From Parcubacteria group bacterium (GTDB taxonomy: Bacteria; Patescibacteriota; Minisyncoccia; Phycocordibacterales; UBA2135): a stretch of DNA of 64,000 nt. Positions 3,526 to 30,140 of this stretch are shown here, in pieces; the stretch's first letter is position 1, and every line of letters begins with the position of its first letter. The translations under genes and the position numbers were made by a program. The DNA lies in assembly GCA_016204045.1 (NCBI GenBank), contig JACQLQ010000004.1:100927-164926 (forward strand), given 5' to 3'. The notes beneath the pieces are model-generated. The model was given only the letters and a program-made list of their open reading frames with translations, did no database searches and was not told where the DNA came from.

Positions 3526-4083
3526 CTAGCGAGCTCTGGCCATATGCGCTTCGGCTTTCTCTGAATTAACCCTCAACTCCTCATCGCAGGCGCTCATCGC
3601 CCTTCTCACATGATCGGCAACATCTCCGATGAAGGCGTACTTGCCCAAATCTTTCTCCTTGAGCCATGCATAGTCGGTCATCTCTCTCCCCAACTGAACG
3701 GTTGATTCTGCGGCGAGAAGCGTCCAATACGTCAGGACGAGGGTAGGTGTACCGCTCTTGCGGATGAAGATAACATCGCCATCTTCAAGCAAACGAAGGG
3801 TATCGGGTGGAACATCAAATCCGCCCTCTTCTTTGATTTCTCGAGCCGCCGCACGACGGAGGCCACCTTCCCAAATCGGATGACTTTTGGTCTTCCTCTG
3901 ACGACCCCAGTCTTTTCTGGACATTTTGCCGCCGGCAATTGTCCACAAACCTGGGCCTTCGGCATCCTCATCCCTTCGCCTAAACACCAACGACTCCAAA
4001 ACGCCATCGGAGTCTCTACGAAGCACTACGGTAGTGGTAACCACAACGTATTCAGGAACAGATTCTGCAGATTCCCTAGTCAT
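3526..4083 (-). CDS. NUDIX hydrolase
   Basis: GLWTIAGGK...AAAREIKEEGG Nudix box with an insertion. Confidence 0.85.
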   Translation of the reverse strand: MTRESAESVPEYVVVTTTVVLRRDSDGVLESLVFRRRDEDAEGPGLWTIAGGKMSRKDWGRQRKTKSHPIWEGGLRRAAAREIKEEGGFDVPPDTLRLLEDGDVIFIRKSGTPTLVLTYWTLLAAESTVQLGREMTDYAWLKEKDLGKYAFIGDVADHVRRAMSACDEELRVNSEKAEAHMARAR

Positions 4084-4188
4084 TGAGCACCCTCACAGAC
4101 TCATCTGTCCGCAGTGTACCATGCACGTTTCTCGCGCTCCCATTGCCCCAATAAAAAAGCCGTGGTATATCACGGCGTTTACAAAAAC

Positions 4189-4770
4189 TTACTCAGCAAC
4201 TATGCGCCCACCCTTGGCCATTTCCTCGGGAGTGAACCAAACGGCCATTTCACGTTCTGCCTCTTTCGGGGAATCCGACGCGTGGATGAGATTTCTCGCC
4301 GCAAGGTGATCTCGTGGGCCTGGGGGCGCGGCAAAATAACCGCGAATCGTCTCCTTTGCCGCTTGAGACGGTAGTGGACTGCCGAGCATCTTCCGTACGA
4401 GCGCGATAGCATTTTCACCCTCCAGCACAACGGCCTCAAGCGGCCCTTCTTGATAATAGAGGCGGCACTCCGCCGCGATCATTTTCCCAATCTCGAGCGG
4501 ATCGTCTGCTCCATAAATCTTTTTGGGATCTTCACCCTGCGCTCGCCAGCGCCCTACCGCTCGCTCTCCCATATTCATCATCCATTCTTCCGTGTTTGGG
4601 AAATGACGATCAAGATGGTCCTCCTTTGCCATAAGTCTCTTTGAGACGACAACCGCGAGACCTTTGCGCGCAAATCGCTTCAAGATTTCATATTCGAGTT
4701 TCCGTTGCACTGCATCAGGCTTCAAGATAACCAGTGTGCGCTCGGTCACAGCAATACCTTCCGTTCTCAA
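4189..4770 (-). CDS. ndk: Nucleoside-diphosphate kinase (with insertion)
   Basis: ERTLVILKPDAVQR, GP..AVVLEG, TIRG and RNLIHASDS carrying the catalytic His. Confidence 0.88.
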   Translation of the reverse strand: MRTEGIAVTERTLVILKPDAVQRKLEYEILKRFARKGLAVVVSKRLMAKEDHLDRHFPNTEEWMMNMGERAVGRWRAQGEDPKKIYGADDPLEIGKMIAAECRLYYQEGPLEAVVLEGENAIALVRKMLGSPLPSQAAKETIRGYFAAPPGPRDHLAARNLIHASDSPKEAEREMAVWFTPEEMAKGGRIVAE

Positions 4771-13918: not shown

Positions 13919-14045
13919 GCCACCCCCCGTGCTCGAGCTCGTCTGATTGTATAGGGCATTCCAACACAATGTCCATAGCCGCATACACTTTGACTTCTTA
14001 CAACCGTGAGTGTACAACAGTGGGAGATCAACTCGCGGAATCCCA

Positions 14046-14687
14046 ATGAAGCCAGAGACAATAGCGAGGGCGCAGGCTGTTGACGAAACCTACTTCGGCA
14101 ACCGACCCTTGGACCAGCTTGTCGCAGTACTCCTCTCCCAAGTCGAGTCACTCCGAAAAGAACCTACTCGTCTGAACATTCAAGCGCAGACGGGCGACAT
14201 TCAGTTCGTTCTCGTCTCCATAGCGCGAAACGAAGGTTGGGATCTTGACCAATTACTTGCAGACACGACGACCAAGGTCGAGAACCGCCGCCGTGGACGC
14301 CATTATTACGAAGCGCACATCACAATAAATCCCGTCTTCGGTAGGAAGCTCGAGCACTTCATCGAGGTGTGCAAGCCATATGAGTTTCGTGTGGCTACAC
14401 TGCTCATGCAAAAGCGCAAAAGGGATACGCCGAGACGCTCGAAAAATGACTCATTCTGTACCGGGCGAAGCATTTCATATTCTGACATTGAGACGAGAAT
14501 GCTAGCCCTTGTCGCCAAACTGAAGGCGGCGGGATTCCACGTACAGCGTTTTAAGATTGAAAGTACGCTTCTTGATTCCCGTTACGATGACTCCAAGTTC
14601 CCACTCGACCTCGCCAAATTGCCTGAGAAGGAAATAACTCCTCGCGCACCCGCATCTGGTGCCTTGTCGGGTCGCAAAGAGAAGTAA
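14046..14687 (+). CDS. Hypothetical protein with MazG-like N-terminal helix pair and an unknown C-terminal domain
   Basis: GDIQFVL..IA..EGWDL..LL..T..KV..R resembles the MazG C-half; YEAHITI..RFKIE domain follows. TTGACT-17-TACAAC promoter and a terminator. Confidence 0.55.
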   Translation: MKPETIARAQAVDETYFGNRPLDQLVAVLLSQVESLRKEPTRLNIQAQTGDIQFVLVSIARNEGWDLDQLLADTTTKVENRRRGRHYYEAHITINPVFGRKLEHFIEVCKPYEFRVATLLMQKRKRDTPRRSKNDSFCTGRSISYSDIETRMLALVAKLKAAGFHVQRFKIESTLLDSRYDDSKFPLDLAKLPEKEITPRAPASGALSGRKEK

Positions 14688-16939: not shown

Positions 16940-17146
16940 TTATCTCGTTGTATTCTCCATCCCCGTCTTCATGCCGAGGAAATACCGCGGTGTGATGACA
17001 AACCAGAATCGGAAGAAACCAGGGCGTTCGATAAGCATATAGCCATCCTTACCAATCCAGATCCAATACCCCCAGATAGAGACCATACCAACGACGACTG
17101 CCATAGCCATGATGAGGGAGAATACCACTTGATCCCCTGGACTCAT
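16940..17146 (-). CDS. Small membrane protein
   Basis: GGAGG SD, ATGA overlap with the upstream ORF, TM segment. Confidence 0.55.
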   Translation of the reverse strand: MSPGDQVVFSLIMAMAVVVGMVSIWGYWIWIGKDGYMLIERPGFFRFWFVITPRYFLGMKTGMENTTR

Positions 17147-17559
17147 GCTCCACCTCCTTGGACTGCAGCTTGCTCCTGCAATGCCTCCTTGAGAGATACG
17201 TCGTTGAAAGTCCGCTGAACGATATCGTAGATGCCACTTCTCATTACTGTGGCAGCCTCAGGTTCAACTGACTTTCTGGCATCAGTGAAACGTACCACGG
17301 TTGCATTATATGCCAACACGAGCCATGGAAACTTTCCCAAGCTCGGATGTGTACAAGCAAGCCGCACGAGCTCAATCGCTTTTTCGGAATTTGGATCGTG
17401 GATGAAAAGATCCGTAATCGCACCGGCGACAAGAAATGCCGCTTGTTTGGGATACTTAAGCAACTCCGCAATGAGTGCTTCCGGCTCGAGATCAAACAAC
17501 ATGTCTCCGTTCGTCTCGAGTCCGTAAAAGATCCCATCCCATCCTTGTGGAAGTCCCAT
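17143..17559 (-). CDS. Hypothetical protein
   Basis: GAGGAG SD; middle gene of a three-gene operon. Confidence 0.6.
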   Translation of the reverse strand: MGLPQGWDGIFYGLETNGDMLFDLEPEALIAELLKYPKQAAFLVAGAITDLFIHDPNSEKAIELVRLACTHPSLGKFPWLVLAYNATVVRFTDARKSVEPEAATVMRSGIYDIVQRTFNDVSLKEALQEQAAVQGGGA

Positions 17560-17971: not shown

Positions 17972-19804
17972 ATGGCAGAGCCCTCCCCCAAGACCGTCCT
18001 GATCGGGCCAGCCGTGGAAACGCTCTTCGCAAGGAGCGTGGAATCCCCCTGGCCCCAAGACATACTGAACGATCCCGATTTGGTCCTGCACTCTGAACTT
18101 CGACAGAAGCTATGTACGGCACTCGACACGCTGTACAAACAGCTACCCGATTCACGTATGGATATTGCCGCGGCTATTGAAATGAGAATCGTCGGGGCAG
18201 ACGCGGTAGCAGAGCTCTATCGGCTTCTCACGGAGTTCCTAGACATTGATCCGAATCATCGTCGGCTCGTGTTGTATCTCCCGTTTGAGCTCCTCCCCCA
18301 CGCAGGTTGGAACCCAGCTTCCAATCTACTCCGCACATCTGCGAAATTGTTTGTAGATTCCTACATGCGCTCTTGGCGAGAGTTACTTGAGGAGACACAC
18401 GTACGAGCCAACTTTGATGACGGCAACATCCTCGAGCCAGCACTCGCCCCGAACGGACAACCCAGAGTCTCGAAGGCGGCACACCTCATCCCGCAACTCA
18501 TGCGCAAGGGACTTATCTCCCCCGATGAAGTGACGGCACTTAAGGACAGTACTTCAAGCGACATCCTGAAAGAGAGTATTGTGGAGGCGCTTTCCGCATT
18601 GGAACCCGTGCTTAAGGCTACGGCCAAGAAAGAACCAGACCATCTTACTTCCTTAAAGGGCTTACCCGACGCAATTGCCTTCGATCTGAAGAAACTCGAC
18701 ATGCGCGAAGCGCTCGACCGTTCGCGAGGCATGCCTGGGGCACGAGTCACATGGGAACGATCTGACCGAGAGGATGCACTTATCTCGAACTACGCTACAC
18801 GCATTGCGGAGGCGTTCTCGAGAAACAGCATCGTATGGGAGGATCTGGCAAAACTTTTGTCCCACACCAACAAAGTGATATGTCTCACCGCAATGCGCGG
18901 AGTACGCCTGGCAGTAGAAGCGCTGGCGGACACCGAGAGAGAGCGGGCGCTAGGCCTTTGTGTAAAATTCGGTGCGCATATCAGGGTAGACATGCCGAAC
19001 GTCTCGGATTTCTCTGATGAACTAGAGAGTCTACTCGCACATTGGGCACACCTTGGATTCGTCACCGAAGGAGACCTGCAGAAGTTCGGGTTCGCCTTGC
19101 CGAGATTGGACGCTCCATTCTCGGGGGCGGGTGCTCTTGCCTCTGACCTTAGAACATTCGACAATGTCACTTCACGGATCGCATCTGACCCAGAGCTCTC
19201 GCGGCTTTTCTATCCAGTGGCAATCTTCTTTGGTTCGCGCCTCAAAGGCTACGCCAAGAAGAATGCTGATCTCGATGCCGCAGTCTTCGTGCGACCCGGC
19301 GTCTTGGAGAGCGAGCTCGGAAAAGTGCGACGTGTGCTTGGGGAACTCTTTACCGGGCGAAACATAGACGGTAAGGTCGTCCAATTCTGGCTTGAGGCTC
19401 GAAAAGGAAGTCTTCACATACGTGACTTACCGGACCCCGATGTCCTTCTTGGTGACAGTACTTGGGTACACCTGCTTTTGGGGAGCGTGTGGCTCGGAGA
19501 AGAATCGGCAGTCCGAGAACTCTATACCAGACTGCTTCCTGGGTTCCTGCGCTCCATAGACAAGATGTCTGATGGACGTAGTATTCGAACATTCTGGCTC
19601 GATGAAATGGAGCGAGAAGTCCTGCAATACCGCTTGCTCCACAAAGGATATGGGCGGTTCTTCCCGCGGAGACTTGGGAAGGTGAACCAGGGTAGTATCG
19701 GACCCAACCCGGAAAGCACGTTTTGGGATTCGGGATACAGACGACTTGCAACAAAGCTCTTTATCTCCCGGGTATTTCTACCCCAATTGAAAACAGTTAT
19801 ATAG
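17972..19804 (+). CDS. Large protein with a C-terminal pol-beta-type nucleotidyltransferase motif
   Basis: FFGSRLKGYAKKNADLDAAVF matches hG[GS]x9-13DhD; long helical N-terminal region. Confidence 0.7.
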   Translation: MAEPSPKTVLIGPAVETLFARSVESPWPQDILNDPDLVLHSELRQKLCTALDTLYKQLPDSRMDIAAAIEMRIVGADAVAELYRLLTEFLDIDPNHRRLVLYLPFELLPHAGWNPASNLLRTSAKLFVDSYMRSWRELLEETHVRANFDDGNILEPALAPNGQPRVSKAAHLIPQLMRKGLISPDEVTALKDSTSSDILKESIVEALSALEPVLKATAKKEPDHLTSLKGLPDAIAFDLKKLDMREALDRSRGMPGARVTWERSDREDALISNYATRIAEAFSRNSIVWEDLAKLLSHTNKVICLTAMRGVRLAVEALADTERERALGLCVKFGAHIRVDMPNVSDFSDELESLLAHWAHLGFVTEGDLQKFGFALPRLDAPFSGAGALASDLRTFDNVTSRIASDPELSRLFYPVAIFFGSRLKGYAKKNADLDAAVFVRPGVLESELGKVRRVLGELFTGRNIDGKVVQFWLEARKGSLHIRDLPDPDVLLGDSTWVHLLLGSVWLGEESAVRELYTRLLPGFLRSIDKMSDGRSIRTFWLDEMEREVLQYRLLHKGYGRFFPRRLGKVNQGSIGPNPESTFWDSGYRRLATKLFISRVFLPQLKTVI

Positions 19805-19829
19805 TAAATAAATAAGGGCAGTGAGTATC

Positions 19830-21257
19830 TCACTGCCCTTTTGTAATATCTATTTTATCTTGTTCCGTCGGACCGATAGACACGGCAGCGACGGGAACAC
19901 CAAGATTTTTTTGTATTGTAGAAACGCAAAGATCAATGAACGACTCCTTCGCATTCCCAGAGGGAATGACATGCGTCGTAAGTTTCGGTCTGCACTTGAG
20001 AAGTGCCTGGCCAAGCTTTTCTTGGCGCTGAAGGTGCTCTGCCCCTTCAGCGTCTTTCCGAGCCTTAATCCCCGTGACGATTCCTCGATCGATCTTCAGA
20101 AGATGCTCTGCATCTGGCACGTTGTCGACAATATCATACGCGTCGCACACCTGCCATGATCCCCTGCTCCATATCCGATCGAGACATGTAATGACGAGGT
20201 CATCGATTGCTCCGGGACCGCATGCTTCCAACGCGTAGCGGGCGGCCAACATGTCGAAATGTCCGACACGGAAGTTGCCCTGCCATGGGTGTTCTTTGTT
20301 GACGGCATCTGGCAACTCTAATGCAAGCTCGGACGCTTCAGTGACAAATGGACCTCCGCCGTGCCGCGTGTGATAGGCGCGGAGAATGCCCAAACTTTGC
20401 ACAGCTCCATCATAGTCGCATTCGCGCAAGATGCTCTGCGCCATTTGGGGAATCGTGCGCACTTTCGTCGTATGCGGATGAAAGCCCTGATACCGATCGA
20501 GGAGTACTCCTTGAGAACCCTCAAAGACTACTGTCCCCTCTCTACCAAGTATCTTTTCTGCCACGTATGTATCGTCGACAATGCGCACCTGCCCCACAAG
20601 GTCACCGAAGCGTTCGACTGCCCACTCGACGGTATCGGAATCTTCCATGTCTGCAAGTTCGGCAAGGACACGATGGCGCACATCGGGTGGAACAGTGCTT
20701 GCGCGATCCGCAAATTCCTCGAACTCCGTCCATTTGCAGCGCTGAATGGCTTCCAATTTCTCTCGTAGCAGATCAGTGTTATGCAAATCCTTGATCCTAA
20801 TAGCTCCATCGTTCAAGACTTCGGAGTCAAGCACCGTCTCGCCGACACCAATACCGACAGAGCCGCGTCGCCCCTGGCCACGCATGAGTTCGCGGACACG
20901 GCCGGCAATGGCTTGAAATGGAGTGATGACAAGAGCGTCTTCGTGAATGGTCATGATGTCCAATGCACCGCGAACACCACTCTTCTCTCGCAACCATTCT
21001 TCTTCTTTAAGTATCGCAGCCGGATCGACGAGCATATGCTTCGAGAGATGCGTACCTGCACCCTCAAATGTGCCGGAGCCAAACTGCGAGAAGACGTGCT
21101 CTCTGCCATCTCTACACACCACGTGATGCAGGGCTTGCGGCCCGCCTGTGCGAATCACTGTGTGCGCTTTGTGCTTGCGCGACAACCAGTGCGTCGTAGT
21201 ACCCTTGCCTTCATCTCCATACCCGAGTCCTGTCACTATAAACGCTTTTCTCGTCAT
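19830..21257 (-). CDS. Divergent adenylosuccinate-synthetase-like (PurA-fold) protein
   Basis: GLGYGDEGKG, GSVGIGVGET, FEGSQG.LLD, YHTRHGGGPF.TE and VSIGP; the Asp-binding loop is replaced. Confidence 0.88.
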   Translation of the reverse strand: MTRKAFIVTGLGYGDEGKGTTTHWLSRKHKAHTVIRTGGPQALHHVVCRDGREHVFSQFGSGTFEGAGTHLSKHMLVDPAAILKEEEWLREKSGVRGALDIMTIHEDALVITPFQAIAGRVRELMRGQGRRGSVGIGVGETVLDSEVLNDGAIRIKDLHNTDLLREKLEAIQRCKWTEFEEFADRASTVPPDVRHRVLAELADMEDSDTVEWAVERFGDLVGQVRIVDDTYVAEKILGREGTVVFEGSQGVLLDRYQGFHPHTTKVRTIPQMAQSILRECDYDGAVQSLGILRAYHTRHGGGPFVTEASELALELPDAVNKEHPWQGNFRVGHFDMLAARYALEACGPGAIDDLVITCLDRIWSRGSWQVCDAYDIVDNVPDAEHLLKIDRGIVTGIKARKDAEGAEHLQRQEKLGQALLKCRPKLTTHVIPSGNAKESFIDLCVSTIQKNLGVPVAAVSIGPTEQDKIDITKGQ

Positions 21258-21326
21258 CGCGGCTCCTCCTTTCGTTTCGTGTTTAGAAAACAGGGCGGTC
21301 CTGTGGGCCGCCCTGGCTTGGAGACA

Positions 21327-22538
21327 TTATAGTTTCCAATCCGGCTTCTCTTTACCTTTGGGGGCCGGCTTCTTGTCCTTTGACTTTGAACGCGGAGGAG
21401 AACCCTTTGTCCCGATCGGCCAGATGTCCTCGCGGCTCGCAAACGTGGCACCCGCCATAGGAATCTTGTCGAAATTCGGAAGCGTAGTCTGAAGACCAAT
21501 GGGAATTCCAGAACATGCCTCGACGATACGCTTCGCTTCGGAAGCTGTGACTTTAGCTTCCTTGAGGAAGTCGACTGCGCTCTGAAGATCGAGTACACCT
21601 TCGGTGAGTCCGATGATGACGGCCTGTACTTCGGCAAGGTCTTCTGTCTTTGGCAACCGAATAACACGTTCCTCGCCGAGGACCTTCGACCACCACTCTG
21701 CGGTGTAGCGATTGTTTCCAACCTGCAGGAAAAAGCCATGCCAGTTTCGGAGCAACTTCTTCGCGACTTCAACCGTCGAAGGCAATGACTGGGGTGAACC
21801 CTTACCAAATGCCTTTTCGAGGACTGATGGTCCGAAGACCTGCTCAAGCACTCGCCCATCGAATGAATCGCGCCCAATCTCATCGCCTACCGAGAAGTAG
21901 TAGCCACGAAGCCCGTACTCGGTAATTGCTGCCCTGGTGAGATGTGCTGCTGCAAAAAGTCCGAGCTGATAATCTTCGGTGGAATCCCCACCACTTCTCT
22001 CGGGAACCAAGAGCCCCATCTGCCGTTCGACTTCATTGTCTGGCTCGAACATGGAACGCTGGTAGGGAAATTGATCAACACGGTCCTGCACGACGCCGGT
22101 GCACAACTGTGCGTGATAACGGCGCAATACTGCATTCCCACCCTGTATGAGCAGATTCTGCACCTTGGGCTGCACCTTGAAAGCAATCTCCACGTTGCCA
22201 CCCATTGAGCCAGTCGTATCGACATCCGTCTCGACGGGTATCGCGACACCGAACTTGAGCTCAAATTCATCGCTCCCGGGTACGGGCACGAGAAGGTTGT
22301 TCGCTTCGCGGATGACACCCCGCTCTTTGGGGTCCACAAGAGAATCGAGGCCTTTGCCTTGTTTGGCGCGCTGTTCGCCCTCAAATGTTACCGAGCCAAG
22401 CTTTTTCGCCACAGCGGCTCTCGAAGTATAGTCGGCCATAGAGAATGTGCCTTTAGTTCTCACGGGCGGTCTCCTTGTGAAAGAGCTTTTTCGCCGGAAA
22501 TCACTGTCTTGTGTTTCGGCGCCACCAGCAGTGTACAT
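21327..22538 (-). CDS. vWA-domain protein 1
   Basis: MIDAS-like DVDTTGSMG, GGDSTEDY and FSVGDE; K-rich tail ending PDWKL. Confidence 0.78.
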   Translation of the reverse strand: MYTAGGAETQDSDFRRKSSFTRRPPVRTKGTFSMADYTSRAAVAKKLGSVTFEGEQRAKQGKGLDSLVDPKERGVIREANNLLVPVPGSDEFELKFGVAIPVETDVDTTGSMGGNVEIAFKVQPKVQNLLIQGGNAVLRRYHAQLCTGVVQDRVDQFPYQRSMFEPDNEVERQMGLLVPERSGGDSTEDYQLGLFAAAHLTRAAITEYGLRGYYFSVGDEIGRDSFDGRVLEQVFGPSVLEKAFGKGSPQSLPSTVEVAKKLLRNWHGFFLQVGNNRYTAEWWSKVLGEERVIRLPKTEDLAEVQAVIIGLTEGVLDLQSAVDFLKEAKVTASEAKRIVEACSGIPIGLQTTLPNFDKIPMAGATFASREDIWPIGTKGSPPRSKSKDKKPAPKGKEKPDWKL

Positions 22539-22717
22539 CGCTTGTCGACCCGTGTCAAAACTGGTCTCTAGGGGTCGCTCGCTCTCTACACGTGGTGTCT
22601 ACTTGGTATCGTATCAGGAAGAGAGTAAGTGTCAAGTATACACTATGTTACAACCCAAAGGCTGGTGTGAGTCAACAAAAAACCTGGGGGGTCGTCCCAG
22701 GTTGTTACTTCTATGTA

Positions 22718-23656
22718 TCAGATCGGATTGGCGGTCGTATATTCCTGCCAAAAGGCAAGCGCTTCTTTTGAATGCTCGCGAGAAATCTCATCGCACAGCA
22801 TGAAGTGCTTGAAGCCCAGTATACGCATCAACTCAATGTCGGAAATATCCGCCATAGAGACTCCTCCCCCATCAAGTCCCAGGAGAAGGCGTGAGGCACA
22901 GATCGCGCGCGGATCTTTCTCTGCAATCTCGCGGAGTGCACCGACCATTTTCCCCACACCAATCTGAATCATCAAATCATCGCGCGCAGCCATCAGTCGA
23001 TACGGACTGCCGTTTGAGAAATGCTTTTGCTCAAGCCCGCGCACGAACTCAACTCCCGCTTGTGATTCGATCTTCAATACAATTTCGCATTCTTCAAGAG
23101 ACACCGCTCCTCGAGAATGCCGCTCGATGGCTTCTTCGAGTTCACGAACATCATCCCTGCTTTCGATAAAAGAAAGCATGAACCGCCTAATCCCCTGTTC
23201 CAGTGCCGCTTTGATATATTCGTGGTCGAGAGGAAGAAGACCGCCCTCAATCGTAAGTCTCTTGGCGAGTATGTTCACTGACTGCCCCTTGCCGACGAAT
23301 TTCGGTTTGGAGTCTACAAAGAGCTCATTACCACGCCGCACCTCACGGAGTTCACACGGCTGATCGCCACGCAAATATACTGTTGCTGGCAATTCTACCG
23401 AAATACCGTGGTTGAGGATAATCGGGCTATCGGGCACCACAGCCCATTCGATAATGCGGAGTTGTCTACCCTTCAAATCAACATAGAAAGGCTTATTGAG
23501 CGGCTTTGCAAGCGCTTGAATGCGCTCCAGTGCCCCATATGGGCCGCATACAGACTCTACTCCTGTGTTGTATCGAACTGCTTCAACAATCGGATTCGCA
23601 ACAATCGATCGCAAAAGTTCACTCTGGTGTACGGGCGGTAAGCTAGAGATGAGCAT
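22718..23656 (-). CDS. Pyruvate-kinase-like barrel protein lacking the C domain
   Basis: VRYN, VDLKGRQLR, VGKGQSVN, LSFIES, LKIESQAG and MAARDDL parallel PK motifs; ~312 aa. Confidence 0.75.
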   Translation of the reverse strand: MLISSLPPVHQSELLRSIVANPIVEAVRYNTGVESVCGPYGALERIQALAKPLNKPFYVDLKGRQLRIIEWAVVPDSPIILNHGISVELPATVYLRGDQPCELREVRRGNELFVDSKPKFVGKGQSVNILAKRLTIEGGLLPLDHEYIKAALEQGIRRFMLSFIESRDDVRELEEAIERHSRGAVSLEECEIVLKIESQAGVEFVRGLEQKHFSNGSPYRLMAARDDLMIQIGVGKMVGALREIAEKDPRAICASRLLLGLDGGGVSMADISDIELMRILGFKHFMLCDEISREHSKEALAFWQEYTTANPI

Positions 23657-23807
23657 GGGCAATGTCTCCCCTACCACGGACTATCTGCACAAGGAATACC
23701 ACATATATTGCACTCATGTCAATGTCTATGTGTTTAAGTATTGCAATAAAAAACCGCAAGCGATGCGTCGCCTGCAGTGTGCTATCTCTCTAGCTTCTAT
23801 GTGTGTG

Positions 23808-24854
23808 TTAGAGCTTCCAGCTCTGGTCTTTGTTACCCTCATCCTTGCCCTTAGCGCCTGGCTTTTTCTTTTTCTTCGTCCCGGTATCTTTGGGCGGGTC
23901 TTCATCTGAGGTCGAACGCGCAGCCTTGATTGGCTTGAAGTTCTTTAGCGGCTCAAGTGCTGCCGCGACCTGGCGAATGCGTTCAGGCGACTGTGGTTCG
24001 TAGACAACATCTTGTCCCAAGTTGAGTGGCCGTGTCCGCATATCTTCCAGGTACTCGGCAAGAGTTCGCGCGCCCGAGACGATAGCGTAGACCCCGAGCG
24101 TGACGTCGCCAATGGCAAGGTCGCCATCGTCGCCCTTCGGGAGTAGGATCACCCTATCCCTACCAAGAGCTTCGCGCCATTCGCTCACAATGCGAGCATC
24201 CAATTCGTTTGGATAATGCCGATGAATGAGCAACGCATTACCCTTAAATTTCTTCACAAGATCAGCAAACACCTTGTTCGCGGTCGTATCCTGGTGCTCT
24301 CCACCAAAATGTTCGCTAAGATCCGCACCATAAAGTTGCGGATAGAATCCCTCATCTCCCGTGAAGAGGAAAATGGGCACTTCGGCGTTCGGCATGTCAA
24401 AGAGGTATGCATAGTAATACGCGACCACTTCATACGACTCCCTGTGTTGACCGCCACCACCGCCCTCAAAGTAAATTTTCTTGAAGTACTTATCGAGGTT
24501 CCGTAAGGCGGAAAAGTCTGCCATTTGGAGCGGGGCATTATCCCAGGTGATGTCACCAACCGCGGACAGACTCATCTCGGGTTCCCGAAGATAGTCACGC
24601 GCTACAATCTGACCAACAATGCCTGGCCACTTGTCGTAGATGATCTTGGGCAGTCTACCCATGGACCCAGTCACATCAAAGGCATAGACCAGAGGGCTTC
24701 GCGCACTGCACACGAGTCTGCGATTTTTTGGCAAGAACGATGGGTCAACTCTCGCCTGGGAAAGGTCTCTCTCTGCAACGCTCGTAAATCCACTTGCTGT
24801 ACGAAGCGCTTTGCTAGTTACGTCACGACCATAGAAGTCGCCGCTACCACCCAT
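23808..24854 (-). CDS. vWA-domain protein 2
   Basis: MGGSG start after AGGAGG; AFDVTGSMG, GGGGQHRESY and FLFTGDEG; K-rich tail ending QSWKL. Confidence 0.8.
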   Translation of the reverse strand: MGGSGDFYGRDVTSKALRTASGFTSVAERDLSQARVDPSFLPKNRRLVCSARSPLVYAFDVTGSMGRLPKIIYDKWPGIVGQIVARDYLREPEMSLSAVGDITWDNAPLQMADFSALRNLDKYFKKIYFEGGGGGQHRESYEVVAYYYAYLFDMPNAEVPIFLFTGDEGFYPQLYGADLSEHFGGEHQDTTANKVFADLVKKFKGNALLIHRHYPNELDARIVSEWREALGRDRVILLPKGDDGDLAIGDVTLGVYAIVSGARTLAEYLEDMRTRPLNLGQDVVYEPQSPERIRQVAAALEPLKNFKPIKAARSTSDEDPPKDTGTKKKKKPGAKGKDEGNKDQSWKL

Positions 24855-24984
24855 GGGAGATCCTCCTTTCAAGGATCTTGTGTAGAAACTGCCCTCACCA
24901 TAACGGAAGGATGCTCCATTGTCAATAATGCCAAAAGAAAAAGCCTCGGCATGAATATGCCGAGGCGTATGACGATAAAGAACG

Positions 24985-26955
24985 TTAGGCGACAGCAACG
25001 GCTTCGCCACCGTTGACGATATTCCGCGCCTCGATTTGCGCAATGATCTCGGCTCCACCCGGAACCAAGTCGCGCTCCTTAATATCCTCGATAATCTCTC
25101 TCGCATTTTCGGGCAAGAGTCTGCGAGAAGAAGACTCTGAAATCGCAAGAAGTGTCATGAGGTCAATCTCTGTTTGACTCGCCGAAGGAATGAAGTCCTC
25201 GATCGATGCCCGAAGTGCCTCATCATCAACCTTGTCCTTGCGCATCTCACCCGCAAACTTGAATGCCTTGAGCGTAATCGCTTCAACATCAGCTCCGGAG
25301 CGCCCCTTGACCATTGCGGCGAAGGGGGCAAAATTGGTTACCGAATTCGGAATATCGTATCGGCGAAACATGACCGTAAAGATCGAGGCGATCTCCACCT
25401 CTGTTGGCATCAAAAGCGCAATACGATCATCGCTCCGACCGCTCCGCTTCAGCGCGGCATCCATGCGATCGGGCCTGTTGGTACAGTTGATCATGAGGAT
25501 ACGCCCGCGAATCTTCGGATCAGAAAGGAACTCCATCCACGCGCGCATAATGCGTTCCGAGACACCGGAGTCGCCCTTTGGCGAATCGCGGTTTGCCTCT
25601 CCCAAGTCTACCTCATCGTTCATGACGATGACTGGCGCAAGCGCCCACAGCCCTTGGATCTGAAGCTCGGTCCGTTCTTCGGACTGCCCCACCCACATTG
25701 ACCGCGCGTTTTTCATTCTAACGAAGTTGAAACGAGCGCCCTTGGCGAGAGCCTGACCCAAAGCAGTCTTGCCCGTGCCTGGGGGACCCATAAGGGTAAC
25801 GCCCTGTGGAATGAGACGTATCTCGTTCCTGGTGATAGCATCGATCACGTTCGCAAAGTATCTCTTTACTTTCTCCAAGCCGCCGATCTCATTGAGGCTC
25901 CACTGCGGTTCGACGATTTCCATCACTGACCCATATTCGGCATTCAAGATTTCGTTCTTCCTCGCCTTTACGAAAGAAAGGTCAATTGGACGTTTCGCCT
26001 GCGCGGCAGTACGGAAGACCTCGAGGATCTGCCGCAAGCTCAGGCCTTGTGTCGCGTTAACGAATGCGTTGAGATCAAAATCTTCGGGGACTTCAAAGTG
26101 CGGAGGAAACTCTTGCAGGCGTTCCTCTAGCCCTTCAATCTCCTCTGTTGTCTCACTCTTCGCGCTACCCTTGGCACGCGGAAGCTTCTTCTTCAACGCG
26201 CTCAACTGGGCTTCAATCTCCTGCTCTTCTGGCAGACCATACGCCTGGCGTTCGATATAGCATCTGCGCTCCTCGGCCGTCGGCTTCGGAATAAAGACGC
26301 TACTAATTCTGGCTGATGACTGACGCAACTCACCGGAGACCTTGGTCGCGAGATCAGTAAGAAGCAATACGATATTGCTCCGCTTCTTTACGCGAGAATC
26401 CTGCGCCCACGCACGAAGTCGTGCAATATGCGTCCGCTCCGCAGCGAGAAGCGCTCCACCTGTCGACTCGGGCACAATAAGATGTGCTGATTCGATAACC
26501 ACGGCAACGCGCTCCATATCTTTGAGCACTTTCTCAATGAGGGGCAAGCACAGCTCCGGTTCGCGAGGGAGTTGCCGCTTTGCGGCAAGCCCAGCCTTCG
26601 CGGCGGCAACGGCGTCTTTCGCGGCTTTTGCCGCGTCTTCCTCACTTTGGAGCCCCGCGACCTTGCGAAACTCCCTTTCCATGTCAGGGGTGAGAAAACG
26701 AAGACCTGTCGCGATGTCGTAGAAAATCACCATCTCTTGCGCGCTCAACAAGCGCTTGAAGAACTCGTGAAGTGGAATATACGGATACCGCGGCTCATCT
26801 TCTACTTCTGGGTTTGGCACGAGGCAATTGATGTCACCGTGCAACAAGAAGACCGAGGAGATAGACGATACACCACGATTGAACTTGTCGAGCACTCCCG
26901 CCGTAAACCACGGGGGCACCTTGGGAAGCACTGGGGCGGCGGTCTTGTCTTTCAT
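24985..26955 (-). CDS. AAA+ ATPase (degenerate N-terminal plus active C-terminal AAA module, Ycf46-like architecture)
   Basis: IGGLEKVK, GPPGTGKT, VIVMNDEVD and TNRPDRMDAALKRSGR; start MKDKT after AAGGAG. Confidence 0.9.
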   Translation of the reverse strand: MKDKTAAPVLPKVPPWFTAGVLDKFNRGVSSISSVFLLHGDINCLVPNPEVEDEPRYPYIPLHEFFKRLLSAQEMVIFYDIATGLRFLTPDMEREFRKVAGLQSEEDAAKAAKDAVAAAKAGLAAKRQLPREPELCLPLIEKVLKDMERVAVVIESAHLIVPESTGGALLAAERTHIARLRAWAQDSRVKKRSNIVLLLTDLATKVSGELRQSSARISSVFIPKPTAEERRCYIERQAYGLPEEQEIEAQLSALKKKLPRAKGSAKSETTEEIEGLEERLQEFPPHFEVPEDFDLNAFVNATQGLSLRQILEVFRTAAQAKRPIDLSFVKARKNEILNAEYGSVMEIVEPQWSLNEIGGLEKVKRYFANVIDAITRNEIRLIPQGVTLMGPPGTGKTALGQALAKGARFNFVRMKNARSMWVGQSEERTELQIQGLWALAPVIVMNDEVDLGEANRDSPKGDSGVSERIMRAWMEFLSDPKIRGRILMINCTNRPDRMDAALKRSGRSDDRIALLMPTEVEIASIFTVMFRRYDIPNSVTNFAPFAAMVKGRSGADVEAITLKAFKFAGEMRKDKVDDEALRASIEDFIPSASQTEIDLMTLLAISESSSRRLLPENAREIIEDIKERDLVPGGAEIIAQIEARNIVNGGEAVAVA

Positions 26956-26965
26956 CGGCTTCTCC

Positions 26966-27664
26966 TTAGTGGTCATGACGATGGCCATGGCCGTGTTGGT
27001 GGCTCTCCGTGTGGCCGTGCTTGTCACGAGTTTCGCCCGGGAAGGGATCGCCCTGCTTGATTGCGCGCTTCCCAAGGACAAGCTTCACTCCGAGCCGAGC
27101 CGCAAGCGCCAGAAACTTTGCTGTTGCGAGATCGAGCGCCTTGCGTGACTTGAAGTGTTCGAAGACAATCTCGGAGACATCGCCCCGTCGCGTGATCTTG
27201 ATGTAGTCAGAGGGGTGTGATTTCCCTGCCTCTTCGGCTTCGAGCACAAGCTCTTCGCCTTTTTGCGTAATCGTCACCGTGTAATCGAGAAGTTCTGCCA
27301 CAATGCCGAGAATCTCGAATTGCCAACGATTGGAAACAGCCGAGCTTCGTTCACTCAGCCGCGCTTTTTCGCGAGCAGAGGTAAAGCTCCCCTTCGCCTC
27401 AAGCATCCCTTGCGCATTTACGGTGAAATCGAGACCTCCACCGTCCACTTTCGCAAGGGCGCGCTTAAGCGCCTCAGTGAGAAGCGACTCGACGTCTATC
27501 TCATTACCAGTAATCCATTCCAAGAATGTCGAATCTTCTATACCGAGCTTTTCCAAGAGGTCTGCATCGATATCAAGGGCCTTTGCCTTTTCAGTAAATA
27601 CTTGCGGCTGCGGCGCTGGAATTGTGACCTTAGTAACACTTCTATATCCGATATCGCACGGCAT
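26966..27664 (-). CDS. Hypothetical protein with MPC N-terminus and His-rich C-terminus; AAA partner
   Basis: AAGGTGG SD; ends 10 nt before the AAA start; tail HGHTESHQHGHGHRHDH. Confidence 0.7.
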   Translation of the reverse strand: MPCDIGYRSVTKVTIPAPQPQVFTEKAKALDIDADLLEKLGIEDSTFLEWITGNEIDVESLLTEALKRALAKVDGGGLDFTVNAQGMLEAKGSFTSAREKARLSERSSAVSNRWQFEILGIVAELLDYTVTITQKGEELVLEAEEAGKSHPSDYIKITRRGDVSEIVFEHFKSRKALDLATAKFLALAARLGVKLVLGKRAIKQGDPFPGETRDKHGHTESHQHGHGHRHDH

Positions 27665-28013: not shown

Positions 28014-28628
28014 TTATTTTAAACCAGTGTGAATATTTTCTGTAGGCCACTCGATGAGCTCGAGTGTAATGGTGCCGTTGTTAACGTTGAATTTTATGAA
28101 GCCGCTATCAAGCACTTTGAGCGCGTCTTCACGCCCTTCGACGTATCGTCGTTCAAGAGCAATCTCCCACGGACGCTCATCTCTCCCCCGAGATAAGTCT
28201 ACATTGTATGCAATCCCCCGAGTGTTGTGACGCGCATATATCTCGTCTTTAAACGCTTCGAGGTTATTCCCTTCGAAAACCCGAGCGACCTCTGGCGGCA
28301 AGGGCGCAACGTCCCCTGCTGCTCTTCCTTTGAGATAGTCGCGGAGTGTTCGTATGACCTCCCTTGAGTCGGGGCGCATTGATTTTGTCTCACCCAAAGG
28401 TTCATCGAAACGTCTATCGATTGCATCGAACTCTTGCGCGAGGAAATCGAGAAAGGCCGCATATGCCGGAGAGTCGGGCTTGAGACGATACGAGCCTTCG
28501 CTTCCACCTCGGCCGGATTCATCTTCTATGCCATAGCTCGCCAATGCCACTTTCGCCCTTTCAATAAATGTGCGGTCGTGGGGAAGAGGGAGACCCTCCA
28601 TTGTTTCAGAACGAAATTGTTCAAGCAT
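28014..28628 (-). CDS. Hypothetical protein
   Basis: 204-aa ORF with a -10-like element 6 nt before ATG. Confidence 0.6.
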   Translation of the reverse strand: MLEQFRSETMEGLPLPHDRTFIERAKVALASYGIEDESGRGGSEGSYRLKPDSPAYAAFLDFLAQEFDAIDRRFDEPLGETKSMRPDSREVIRTLRDYLKGRAAGDVAPLPPEVARVFEGNNLEAFKDEIYARHNTRGIAYNVDLSRGRDERPWEIALERRYVEGREDALKVLDSGFIKFNVNNGTITLELIEWPTENIHTGLK

Positions 28629-29369: not shown

Positions 29370-30071
29370 TCAGCTCTTAGGCGGAATCTCCTCCACCTCA
29401 TCAGCATACACGAACCCCATCTCCTGGACGCCAAGTGGGGAGAGATCGACATCATATCCACCCTCGCGCTTGTGGATCACTCTAAAGGAGTGTCCCTTAA
29501 CGCGCTCAAAGAACCCGGGGACTTTTAGTCTGTGTTGCCTGACCACCCGAACCCTGATTACAGGAACACTCTTCACGAGAACGCGCCCCCAGCCATCTGT
29601 CGTCCACACCTCTGATGTCGTCTCCTTGGGAGACGTGTTGAGACGCGACTCGAGCACAATGGCCGCCTTTCTGACTTCAGACGTGAGGTCATAGGTAAGC
29701 ATCTCAGCGTACGTAACCCATGCGTGGTCGGTGTGCTCTTCGCTCAAGGCGAGGGTGCCACCGACAAGCCGAGTGATACTGAATATGACGACGTAGGGCA
29801 AACCCTTGTACTGCCCCGCACCAATCACGAAGCTGTCTACGAACACCTGTCGCTCTGTCGGTTCGACGAGGTACCCGGTTTCTTCCATCACTTCGCGTTC
29901 TTGCGCGTGGGAAAGATCTTGCCCTACATCCACCTTGCCACCGGCAACTTCCCATTTCCCAGGATTATTCTTATCTTTTAGCGACCGCTTGATAATGAGC
30001 CACGTGCCGTCATCGCGTCCCAAGAAGCATCGATTGACGAGAACAACACGAGGTCTGGTGTTCGCTGACAT
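29370..30071 (-). CDS. NUDIX hydrolase with C-terminal extension
   Basis: GKWEVAGGKVDVGQ..AQEREVMEETG and LSEEH. Confidence 0.88.
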   Translation of the reverse strand: MSANTRPRVVLVNRCFLGRDDGTWLIIKRSLKDKNNPGKWEVAGGKVDVGQDLSHAQEREVMEETGYLVEPTERQVFVDSFVIGAGQYKGLPYVVIFSITRLVGGTLALSEEHTDHAWVTYAEMLTYDLTSEVRKAAIVLESRLNTSPKETTSEVWTTDGWGRVLVKSVPVIRVRVVRQHRLKVPGFFERVKGHSFRVIHKREGGYDVDLSPLGVQEMGFVYADEVEEIPPKS

Positions 30072-30140
30072 GGCGCCCCTTTCGCAAGGCAGAACCTTTG
30101 AGAGTAAATCACAAAAATGTAGTTTTGTCAATCAATGACT

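Follow-up and report, generated by a model that had tools for sequence, protein, structure and literature searches.

The window analysed here is a stretch of 64,000 nucleotides from a member of the Parcubacteria group, and the system in question is a module of seven contiguous genes centred on a protein resembling the adenylosuccinate synthetase PurA (Table 1). All seven open reading frames were confirmed at the place, in the order and in the orientation described by an earlier note on this DNA. The host genome is small (674 kb, 95% complete) and the closest named relatives of the PurA-like protein were found in Patescibacteria. Judged from sequence comparisons, the module is a real, mobile and modular system without earlier description. 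New here are a rule on the N-terminal amine of its vWA proteins (Gly2 or Lys), a PurA-like enzyme with a replaced aspartate pocket, matched C-terminal tags on these proteins and the exchange of a pseudokinase for a pair composed of the MPC protein and an AAA+ ATPase.

Table 1. Genes and features of the module (positions in the window; strand - or +)
Feature	Position	Strand	Characteristics or basis
MPC protein	26966..27664	-	232 aa, His-rich tail
AAA+ ATPase	24985..26955	-	656 aa; PF00004 E 1e-21
vWA-2	23808..24854	-	348 aa; starts MGGSG; Lys-rich tail then SWKL end; phrog_2971 E 6e-20
PK-like (pyruvate kinase-like) mini barrel	22718..23656	-	about 312 aa; short lid, no C domain; PF00224 E 6e-7
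vWA-1	21327..22463	-	378 aa; starts MRTKGTFS; Lys-rich tail then DWKL end; phrog_2971 E 2e-9
PurA-like ligase	19830..21257	-	475 aa; PF00709 E 8e-49
NTase (nucleotidyltransferase, Pol-beta type, large helical N-terminal part)	17972..19804	+	610 aa; convergent to PurA-like
Lys4 codon of vWA-1, predicted acceptor amine	22452..22454	-	sequence; register against Gly2 relatives
vWA-1 C-terminal tag WKL-stop (TGG AAA CTA TAA)	21327..21338	-	sequence
vWA-2 C-terminal tag WKL-stop (TGG AAG CTC TAA)	23808..23819	-	sequence
12-pair hairpin in the 25-nt PurA-like/NTase convergent gap	19814..19840	.	consensus match only

The start of vWA-1 was refined to a GTG at 22463, most likely its start codon, with AAGGAG 7 nt upstream. 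The hairpin between the two convergent genes is likely a terminator common to both. As the earlier note had held when it ascribed promoters or terminators of their own to most genes, promoter- and terminator-like sites did lie between several of them; their counts, however, were not in excess over shuffled sequences (6 promoter-like sites vs 6.3, 13 terminator-like sites vs 10.3).

Recurrence was examined around relatives of the PurA-like protein, i.e. the top 80 among 549 confirmed genome stretches, the complete set of 41 viral loci (obtained with an alignment scan, a single-protein scan of viral contigs having given nothing), the best 80 of 455 metagenome stretches and further genome regions. 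The 222 loci with a PurA-like gene were reduced to 204 by dereplication at 90%, of which 103 were well flanked. A vWA gene lay within 9 kb of the PurA-like gene in 101 of these 103, in bacteria as well as phages, and was accompanied by other partners with various frequencies (kinase-like gene in 80 loci, NTase in 29, PK-like in 17, MPC in 11). The complete set of seven genes was present in five other dereplicated loci, in the window order (L011, L012, L232) or rearranged (L131, L228). L006 and L010 agreed with it up to their contig ends, and L008 and L129 were devoid of vWA-2. Among 400 other genomes of the class, PurA-like occurred in 17 (E below 1e-100); the six genomes with strong MPC matches were all among these 17, NTase adjoined PurA-like in five of the six genomes carrying it, and the vWA family, found in 20, covered 15 of the 17. 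The earlier note had left open, pending a neighbourhood check, that the genes could be independent cassettes; these figures speak for a recurrent module. For G089, it was considered that the partner of its NTase had been lost at a contig end, and this was rejected: the NTase stands among unrelated genes and a broken vWA piece lies on another contig.

The system was spread over Patescibacteria, Actinomycetota, Chloroflexota, Myxococcota and large phages. Named phage records displayed 218 PurA-like matches, 201 of them in Mycobacterium phages. Phage ET08 has the order kinase, a 595-codon gene with vWA-family start and end, a small gene and PurA-like. The long gene, gp248 (L246:4954-6738, about 595 codons), starts with GTG-GSGAW, ends with DRL and probably carries an insertion. 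In the phage group L099, L101, L104 and L105, the module lies near a common gene set that includes a gene TROVE-like by eye, though unscanned.

Several architectures were distinguished. The first one (kinase-vWA-PurA) occurred in bacteria and phages, the second added X400 and a convergent NTase to it, and the third comprised variants carrying PK and NAD-salvage genes. In the fourth, to which the window belongs, an MPC-AAA-vWA2-PK block replaces the kinase-like gene and X400, neither of which was found elsewhere in the host genome. MPC was accompanied by AAA and PK in all 11 well-flanked loci, by two vWAs in 10 and by NTase in 7. The kinase-like gene was present in none of these 11 vs 80 of the 92 others, so that MPC+AAA and pseudokinase were mutually exclusive. 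The AAA, MPC and vWA-2 proteins of MPC loci each formed one clade. Their partner vWA-1 proteins came from several lineages, and a single clade was rejected for their PurA-like proteins (p-AU 0.0002); the block thus joined different cores more than once. On this evidence the system is modular, with PurA-like and vWA as constant core, MPC-AAA-vWA2-PK as exchangeable block and NTase as optional add-on. The "six-component" module of the earlier note was right in that the components recur together, and it missed that some are exchanged or dispensable.

Units made of kinase-like, vWA and PK-like genes without a PurA-like gene of their own were also encountered (L248 at G362:C1:827000-830400, L249, L250, L251, L252 and L255). 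Their PK proteins are about 370 aa long (344 in G409), and they constitute an undescribed sister system.

The PurA-like enzyme was homologous to E. coli PurA (1ADE) over residues 7-378. The window protein keeps D15 and H44, which correspond to the catalytic Asp13 and His41 of E. coli, and K18 and D360, which correspond to the GTP-binding K16 and D333; among 197 relatives the equivalents of K16, H41, R305 and D333, which we take to be the residues making 6-phosphoryl-IMP or reading guanine, were kept without exception. Q224 was likewise kept, and D13 in 188 of 188 ungapped rows. The pocket presumably binding aspartate was replaced throughout these relatives: T300 by Trp or Tyr, T301 by Gln, R303 by variable residues and V273 by an invariant His (W325, Q326, N328 and H299 in the window), giving a family-wide W-Q-G-x loop pattern. 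Further changes concerned T129 and K331. The protein scored 120 bits against TIGR00184 (cut-off 396) and lay under every purA or PurZ equivalog cut-off. The earlier note had remarked that no purB is adjacent; in fact, a search of the whole host genome (95% complete) gave no PurB-type lyase, and an adenylosuccinate product would thus have no outlet. Replacement of the pocket and lack of a detectable PurB support the view, already anticipated in that note, that the enzyme is not a housekeeping one. Its first step would resemble that of PurA, and its amine acceptor would differ.

According to a contrary explanation, a divergent adenylosuccinate synthetase and a pyruvate kinase serve salvage and the other genes are unrelated cassettes. 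This could draw on the fact that the two proteins are the sole PurA and PK matches of the host genome, and on the promoter- and terminator-like sites between several genes. We consider it very improbable given the altered pocket without PurB, the rarity of PurA-like in the class (17 of 400 genomes) and the retention of the gene set through rearrangements.

The family evidence in the module was strong for PurA-like and AAA, good for PK-like and moderate for NTase. As for the constant partner, vWA was the weakest of the labels. Neither window protein had a Pfam match or a PDB sequence match, and only one of 111 relatives matched VWA_4 (E 0.007). The assignment was made on a DxTGS motif (MIDAS-type DxS/TxS) plus invariant acidic residues including the downstream D127 and D194; residues invariant among relatives of vWA-1 were D82, D127, E140, E163 and D194. 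The vWA-2 proteins of MPC loci formed a clade of 13, which groups with the vWAs of kinase-vWA-PK units.

A rule was observed at the vWA N-terminus. With starts chosen by ribosome-site score, 155 of 176 proteins began with Met-Gly. Gly2 lay outside the six commonest second residues of the PurA-like, kinase-like, NTase and AAA proteins from the same loci, and its background in the host genome was 6 of 73. Of the other 21 proteins, 15 displayed a Lys between residues 3 and 5, as against 11 of the 155 with Gly2; the 15 were distributed over seven separate places of the tree. Window vWA-1 (MRTKG) belongs to a clade of nine such Lys-bearing members, and its Lys4 aligned one column after the Gly2 of relatives. 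The other six comprised four with an apparently hidden Gly2 (stop, frameshift or odd start codon), one broken gene and one true exception. The latter belongs to an MSE-starting lineage with neither Gly2 nor Lys that travels as kinase-vWA-PK, and no PurA-like gene was found in the MSE-lineage genomes G362 (single contig), G186 and G411 (where the vWA start is cut off).

This pattern suggests that the vWA proteins are likely amine-bearing substrates, and not scaffolds only. The earlier note had proposed a scaffolded system making or attaching a modified nucleotide, and it is the scaffold part that needs revision. Since PurA-like is the only amine-condensing enzyme nearly always beside vWA, modification of the protein by a purine is favoured. 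Our tentative interpretation, held with slightly less than even confidence, is that a GTP-driven PurA-like ligase makes protein-N6-linked AMP on the vWA arm, together with an AAA+ remodeller. At the expense of GTP, PurA-like would activate an IMP-type nucleotide at C6, and the activated purine would be joined to an amine of the vWA N-terminal arm, i.e. Lys4 in vWA-1 and, after Met removal, Gly2 in vWA-2 (the host genome carries a methionine aminopeptidase homologue). A stable protein-N6-AMP conjugate would result. Gene linkage and exchange, the residue changes of PurA-like, the Gly2-or-Lys rule and the matched tags are observed, whereas we infer every chemical step, the binding of vWA by PurA-like and the identity of the tag-reading protein. 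A predicted complex of PurA-like, GTP and Mg with vWA-1 residues 1-352 (with alignments) scored 0.00 twice and was not used as evidence.

Several of these observations also fit a small-molecule role, in which PurA-like makes or repairs a nucleotide, e.g. by adding ammonia or another small amine directly to an inosine nucleotide or to a deaminated derivative of NAD. Activase-type vWA/AAA pairs remodel enzymes through a vWA adaptor; by this model each vWA would be the adaptor of one enzyme (vWA-1 for PurA-like, vWA-2 for PK) for remodelling by AAA+ or the kinase-like protein, and the N-terminal amine would be structural or regulatory. The bulky Trp, Gln and His residues of the former aspartate pocket could suit a small nucleophile, and direct amination requires no PurB. 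NAD-salvage genes lay within 9 kb in 23 of the 103 loci and in 7 of the 11 with MPC, and the host has a NUDIX-PncA-PncB-NadE cluster. One vWA per enzyme would also account for the PurA-less kinase-vWA-PK units and the grouping of vWA-2 with them. Likewise, different nucleotide substrates are hinted at by residue 265 of PurA-like (window 20463-20465): although the enzymes of MPC loci are of mixed ancestry, all 14 have Lys here, while a basic residue stands at this position in 10 of the 14 remaining PK loci and Trp in 108 of the 122 "other" ones. Such a role, the main competing explanation, is a good possibility, if on the doubtful side: it leaves unexplained the Lys at seven separate places of Gly2 loss, as well as the fact that the sole lineage without both amines is the one that can lack PurA-like.

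The vWA itself might instead be the central enzyme, or a polymerising scaffold, with its own acidic pocket using the N-terminal amine and with PurA-like and PK supplying nucleotides. The acidic residues that are invariant outside the metal motif (D127, E140, E163, D194) would be in keeping with this, as would the presence of the vWA gene in both PurA-containing and PurA-less forms. We regard it as improbable, since members of the MSE lineage, which lack the amine, are still recognised as belonging to the family, and since PurA-like, with its aspartate pocket replaced, would require some other amine in any case.

The two vWAs of MPC loci were further distinguished by their C-terminal ends. In the 12 MPC-type loci with two whole vWAs, both proteins ended alike after a Lys-rich linker, in a tag specific to the locus (WKL/WKL, WKI/WKI, ESWQL twice, GRIF twice, KKGGGLKV twice, KEDWEM twice and others). 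The tags of L232 differ only at the last residue and those of L010 have two residues in common. The summed common suffix of the 12 pairs amounted to 48 vs a shuffled mean of 10.4, and none of 100,000 shuffles reached 48. A further pair, located on two contigs in G355, ends with KPGRI on both sides. Matching tags were absent in five two-vWA loci without MPC; L082, with close-paralogue vWAs, has matching ends, and L143 holds two systems. Most matched tags differed at synonymous sites. Recent duplication was ruled out as their source, except possibly in L228, by trees built without the tails and by the low identity of the paralogues (19-32% between vWA-1 and vWA-2 of MPC+AAA loci). A common reader within the MPC-AAA-vWA2-PK block is implied. 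PurA-like is disfavoured in this role because W-x-hydrophobic tags accompany two unrelated PurA-like lineages.

The AAA+ ATPase, with its aromatic pore loop, is the natural candidate for reading the tags. A single intact module lies at its C-terminus, with Walker A at position 390, the pore-loop sequence SMWVG at 419 and Walker B at 445. Its best NCBIfam matches were CDC48/PAN, far under cut-off, no MoxR model appeared among the 25 NCBIfam matches listed, and AAA_5 matched only with E 0.018 vs 1e-21 for PF00004. MPC was accompanied by this single clade of AAA proteins in 13 of 13 loci and is likely its adaptor; the P2-C3 of MPC was invariant in 98 relatives. None of 25 MPC proteins directly matched DUF2997 or DUF1257. 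Atlas leads did point to these families (with a DUF2997-like C-terminal part, as a lead only), and the MPC profile matched P0298 at 98.7%, which in turn weakly matches DUF2997 (E 0.017), a transitive link. The MPC model (pLDDT 83) gave no clear fold match, the best one (Z 7.8, rmsd 2.5 over 94 residues) being within background. Distant AAA relatives follow two small genes in L244:7325-10001, L245:5467-8921 and L239:6671-9357; the first small gene is MPC-like in L244 and L245, which have stand-alone AAAs. In our proposal, the matching WKL tags would give the MPC-AAA+ pair a hold on both vWA proteins, which it would remodel or release.

The PK-like protein, present in 13 of 13 MPC loci, matched PF00224 just under the cut-off, and a profile of 20 relatives matched solved pyruvate kinases with E 4e-16. 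These 20 relatives share invariant R35, N37, D67, R74, K202, E204, D234 and S262 (numbered from GTG 23677); the R, N, D, K, E, D and T/S barrel residues of pyruvate kinase are presumably its PEP and metal ligands. It is devoid of a full lid and of the C-terminal regulatory domain (TIGR01064, 37 bits vs a cut-off of 306). From the retained residues it likely makes NTP from PEP, and would thereby recycle GDP or phosphorylate the tethered nucleotide.

The kinase-like protein of the other architectures mostly displayed HGA where kinases carry the catalytic Asp. Outside the NTase clade, 53 of 87 loci displayed an HPD motif in this protein, vs 1 of 27 NTase-type loci. By these motifs, the item exchanged for MPC-AAA is a pseudokinase, and its link to DnaK is only partial.

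The NTase matched Polbeta under the cut-off (E 0.005). G421-S422 and D433-x-D435 were invariant in 34 relatives, and the third acidic residue, a Glu in most of them, is Gln471 in the window protein, whose activity may differ on that account. Its model (pLDDT 90) combines helical repeats with a Pol-beta-type domain. Pol-beta look-alikes were found in the Atlas (TM 0.50 to a Pol-beta cluster) and as PDB 1no5 (E 0.009); whole-model fold searches were filled by helical repeats and gave no clear match. All 29 well-flanked NTase loci also carried X400/X336 or MPC, and named homologues were from Patescibacteria. X400 (L020:11392-12618 and relatives) and X336 (L035:11407-12417) are proteins of 330-450 aa encoded between PurA-like and NTase, with an N-terminal region in common, SAM-like (E 4e-4) in one of them. 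Many end in Leu as vWA does, and the two ends are almost identical in L043 (PSGGWL/PSGGKL). In our proposal, the NTase would take as its substrate either the nucleotide once tethered or one of the proteins of the system.

Put together, these elements outline a protein "purinylation", in which the tethered N6-AMP, with free 5'-phosphate and 3'-OH, would be built into tethered ATP, NAD or oligonucleotide by the mini-PK, NMN adenylyltransferases and the NTase, and the AAA+ protein with a DUF2997-like adaptor would read co-evolved tags and recycle the carriers. This extended version is rather unlikely as a whole. As to purpose, the least certain part, the linkage to NAD salvage and the presence of the system in large phages suggest a role in conflict or in coping with stress at the level of nucleotides.

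A number of observations weigh against the proposed N6-linked conjugate and its remodelling. Loci were picked by likeness to the window PurA-like protein and related loci are not independent, so that p-values overstate. The amine was lost just once in the MSE lineage, and two of the five members of this lineage sit in PurA-like genomes (G355 and G123, which have both forms). The G409 vWA keeps MG and no PurA-like gene was found in that genome (94% complete); vWA-2 keeps Gly2 in 13 of 13 cases despite its descent from a PK-associated lineage. The conserved amine could also serve the structure of vWA, forming a salt bridge or binding a metal within it, or could act as a plug that inhibits PurA-like, or be acted on by an enzyme of the host. 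No PurA-like column co-varying with the Gly-to-Lys switch of vWA survived among 442 columns. With respect to the tags, those of L228 are near-identical in DNA, which fits gene conversion, vWAs of AAA-less systems also end in conserved xRL or xWL, and tag class followed the PK tree no less closely than the AAA tree, so that no single reader is singled out. L239 holds a distant AAA and two small genes beside a kinase-type PurA-like locus. Finally, since NTase-type loci, the closest kin of the window, are nearly devoid of HPD, the idea that AAA replaces DnaK recruitment is weak there.

Other genes related to nucleotides were observed in the surroundings. NUDIX and nucleoside-diphosphate-kinase genes lie at 3526-4770 of the window, and a second NUDIX gene at 29370-30131 (-), 1.7 kb upstream of MPC. 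At 3 kb from the module, a gene at 14010-14687 (+) codes for a weakly MazG-like N-terminal part (E 0.003) and an uncharacterised C-terminal part; it is absent from the recurrent neighbours of the module. Proteins encoded at 17143-17559 (-) and 28014-28628 (-) have relatives upstream of the module in a genome of the same genus (L006). The NUDIX-PncA-PncB-NadE cluster of the host lies on another contig (G000:C4:270523-275583), and the same families flank other module copies.

In known protein AMPylation the nucleotide is linked via its phosphate; if true, a PurA paralogue that links it through base N6 would represent a chemistry new to protein modification, and would show a way in which nucleotides are tethered to proteins in nature. 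The results bear on the unexplained "PurA-like adenylosuccinate synthetase" annotation in Bxz1-type mycobacteriophages and suggest a role for the DUF2997/Ycf46-type AAA family. Even if a small molecule were the product, hosts with very little nucleotide metabolism would carry here a widespread and so far undescribed system for handling nucleotides, whose partner blocks are exchangeable and whose docking tags co-evolve.

PADLOC 2.0 reported no specific anti-phage component model, only generic AAA matches and one NTase match with E 0.03. No description of the system was found in the literature, where subscription papers and supplements lay outside the search and may hold one; the accessible portions of PMC10892097, PMC9476963 and PMC7824862 contained gene names or other vWA systems only. 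No Z-DNA genes were among the frequent neighbour families listed for PurA-like loci. Compared with PurA proper (EC 6.3.4.4; PF00709, TIGR00184), the PurA-like enzyme differs by its nearly constant vWA neighbour and by the lack of a detectable PurB. Ycf46-type AAA proteins are associated with small DUF1257/DUF2997 proteins. They share with the window ATPase the long AAA, the N-terminal extension and the small partner gene before it, whereas the window partner is a single 232-aa protein without Pfam match of its own and the clade is tied to the PurA-like system. MoxR-type AAA+/vWA chaperone pairs (CbbQ/CbbO, NorQ/NorD, RavA/ViaA) likewise combine an AAA+ ATPase with vWA partners beside enzymes; here, however, the ATPase is a classical PF00004 one (CDC48/PAN-like) with a DUF2997-like partner and two vWAs with matched tails. 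A MoxR-vWA pair is described in the accessible part of PMC7824862 for a jumbo phage. For the amine rule, the closest parallel is N-myristoyltransferase, an unrelated enzyme with another donor and thus a precedent for geometry by analogy only: in its substrates, according to the available text of PMC7048800, the Gly2 alpha-amine and the Lys3 epsilon-amine are interchangeable as nucleophile, Lys3 standing in for Gly2. For the ligase, a parallel is PurZ/PurZ0 (NF038379), also a repurposed phage-borne PurA paralogue that PHROGs places with it in phrog_1211. The two differ in score (43 bits against NF038379, cut-off 300) and at the catalytic Asp (D13 of E. coli PurA), which is a Ser in PurZ as stated in the accessible part of PMC12884076, and which the PurA-like clade keeps.

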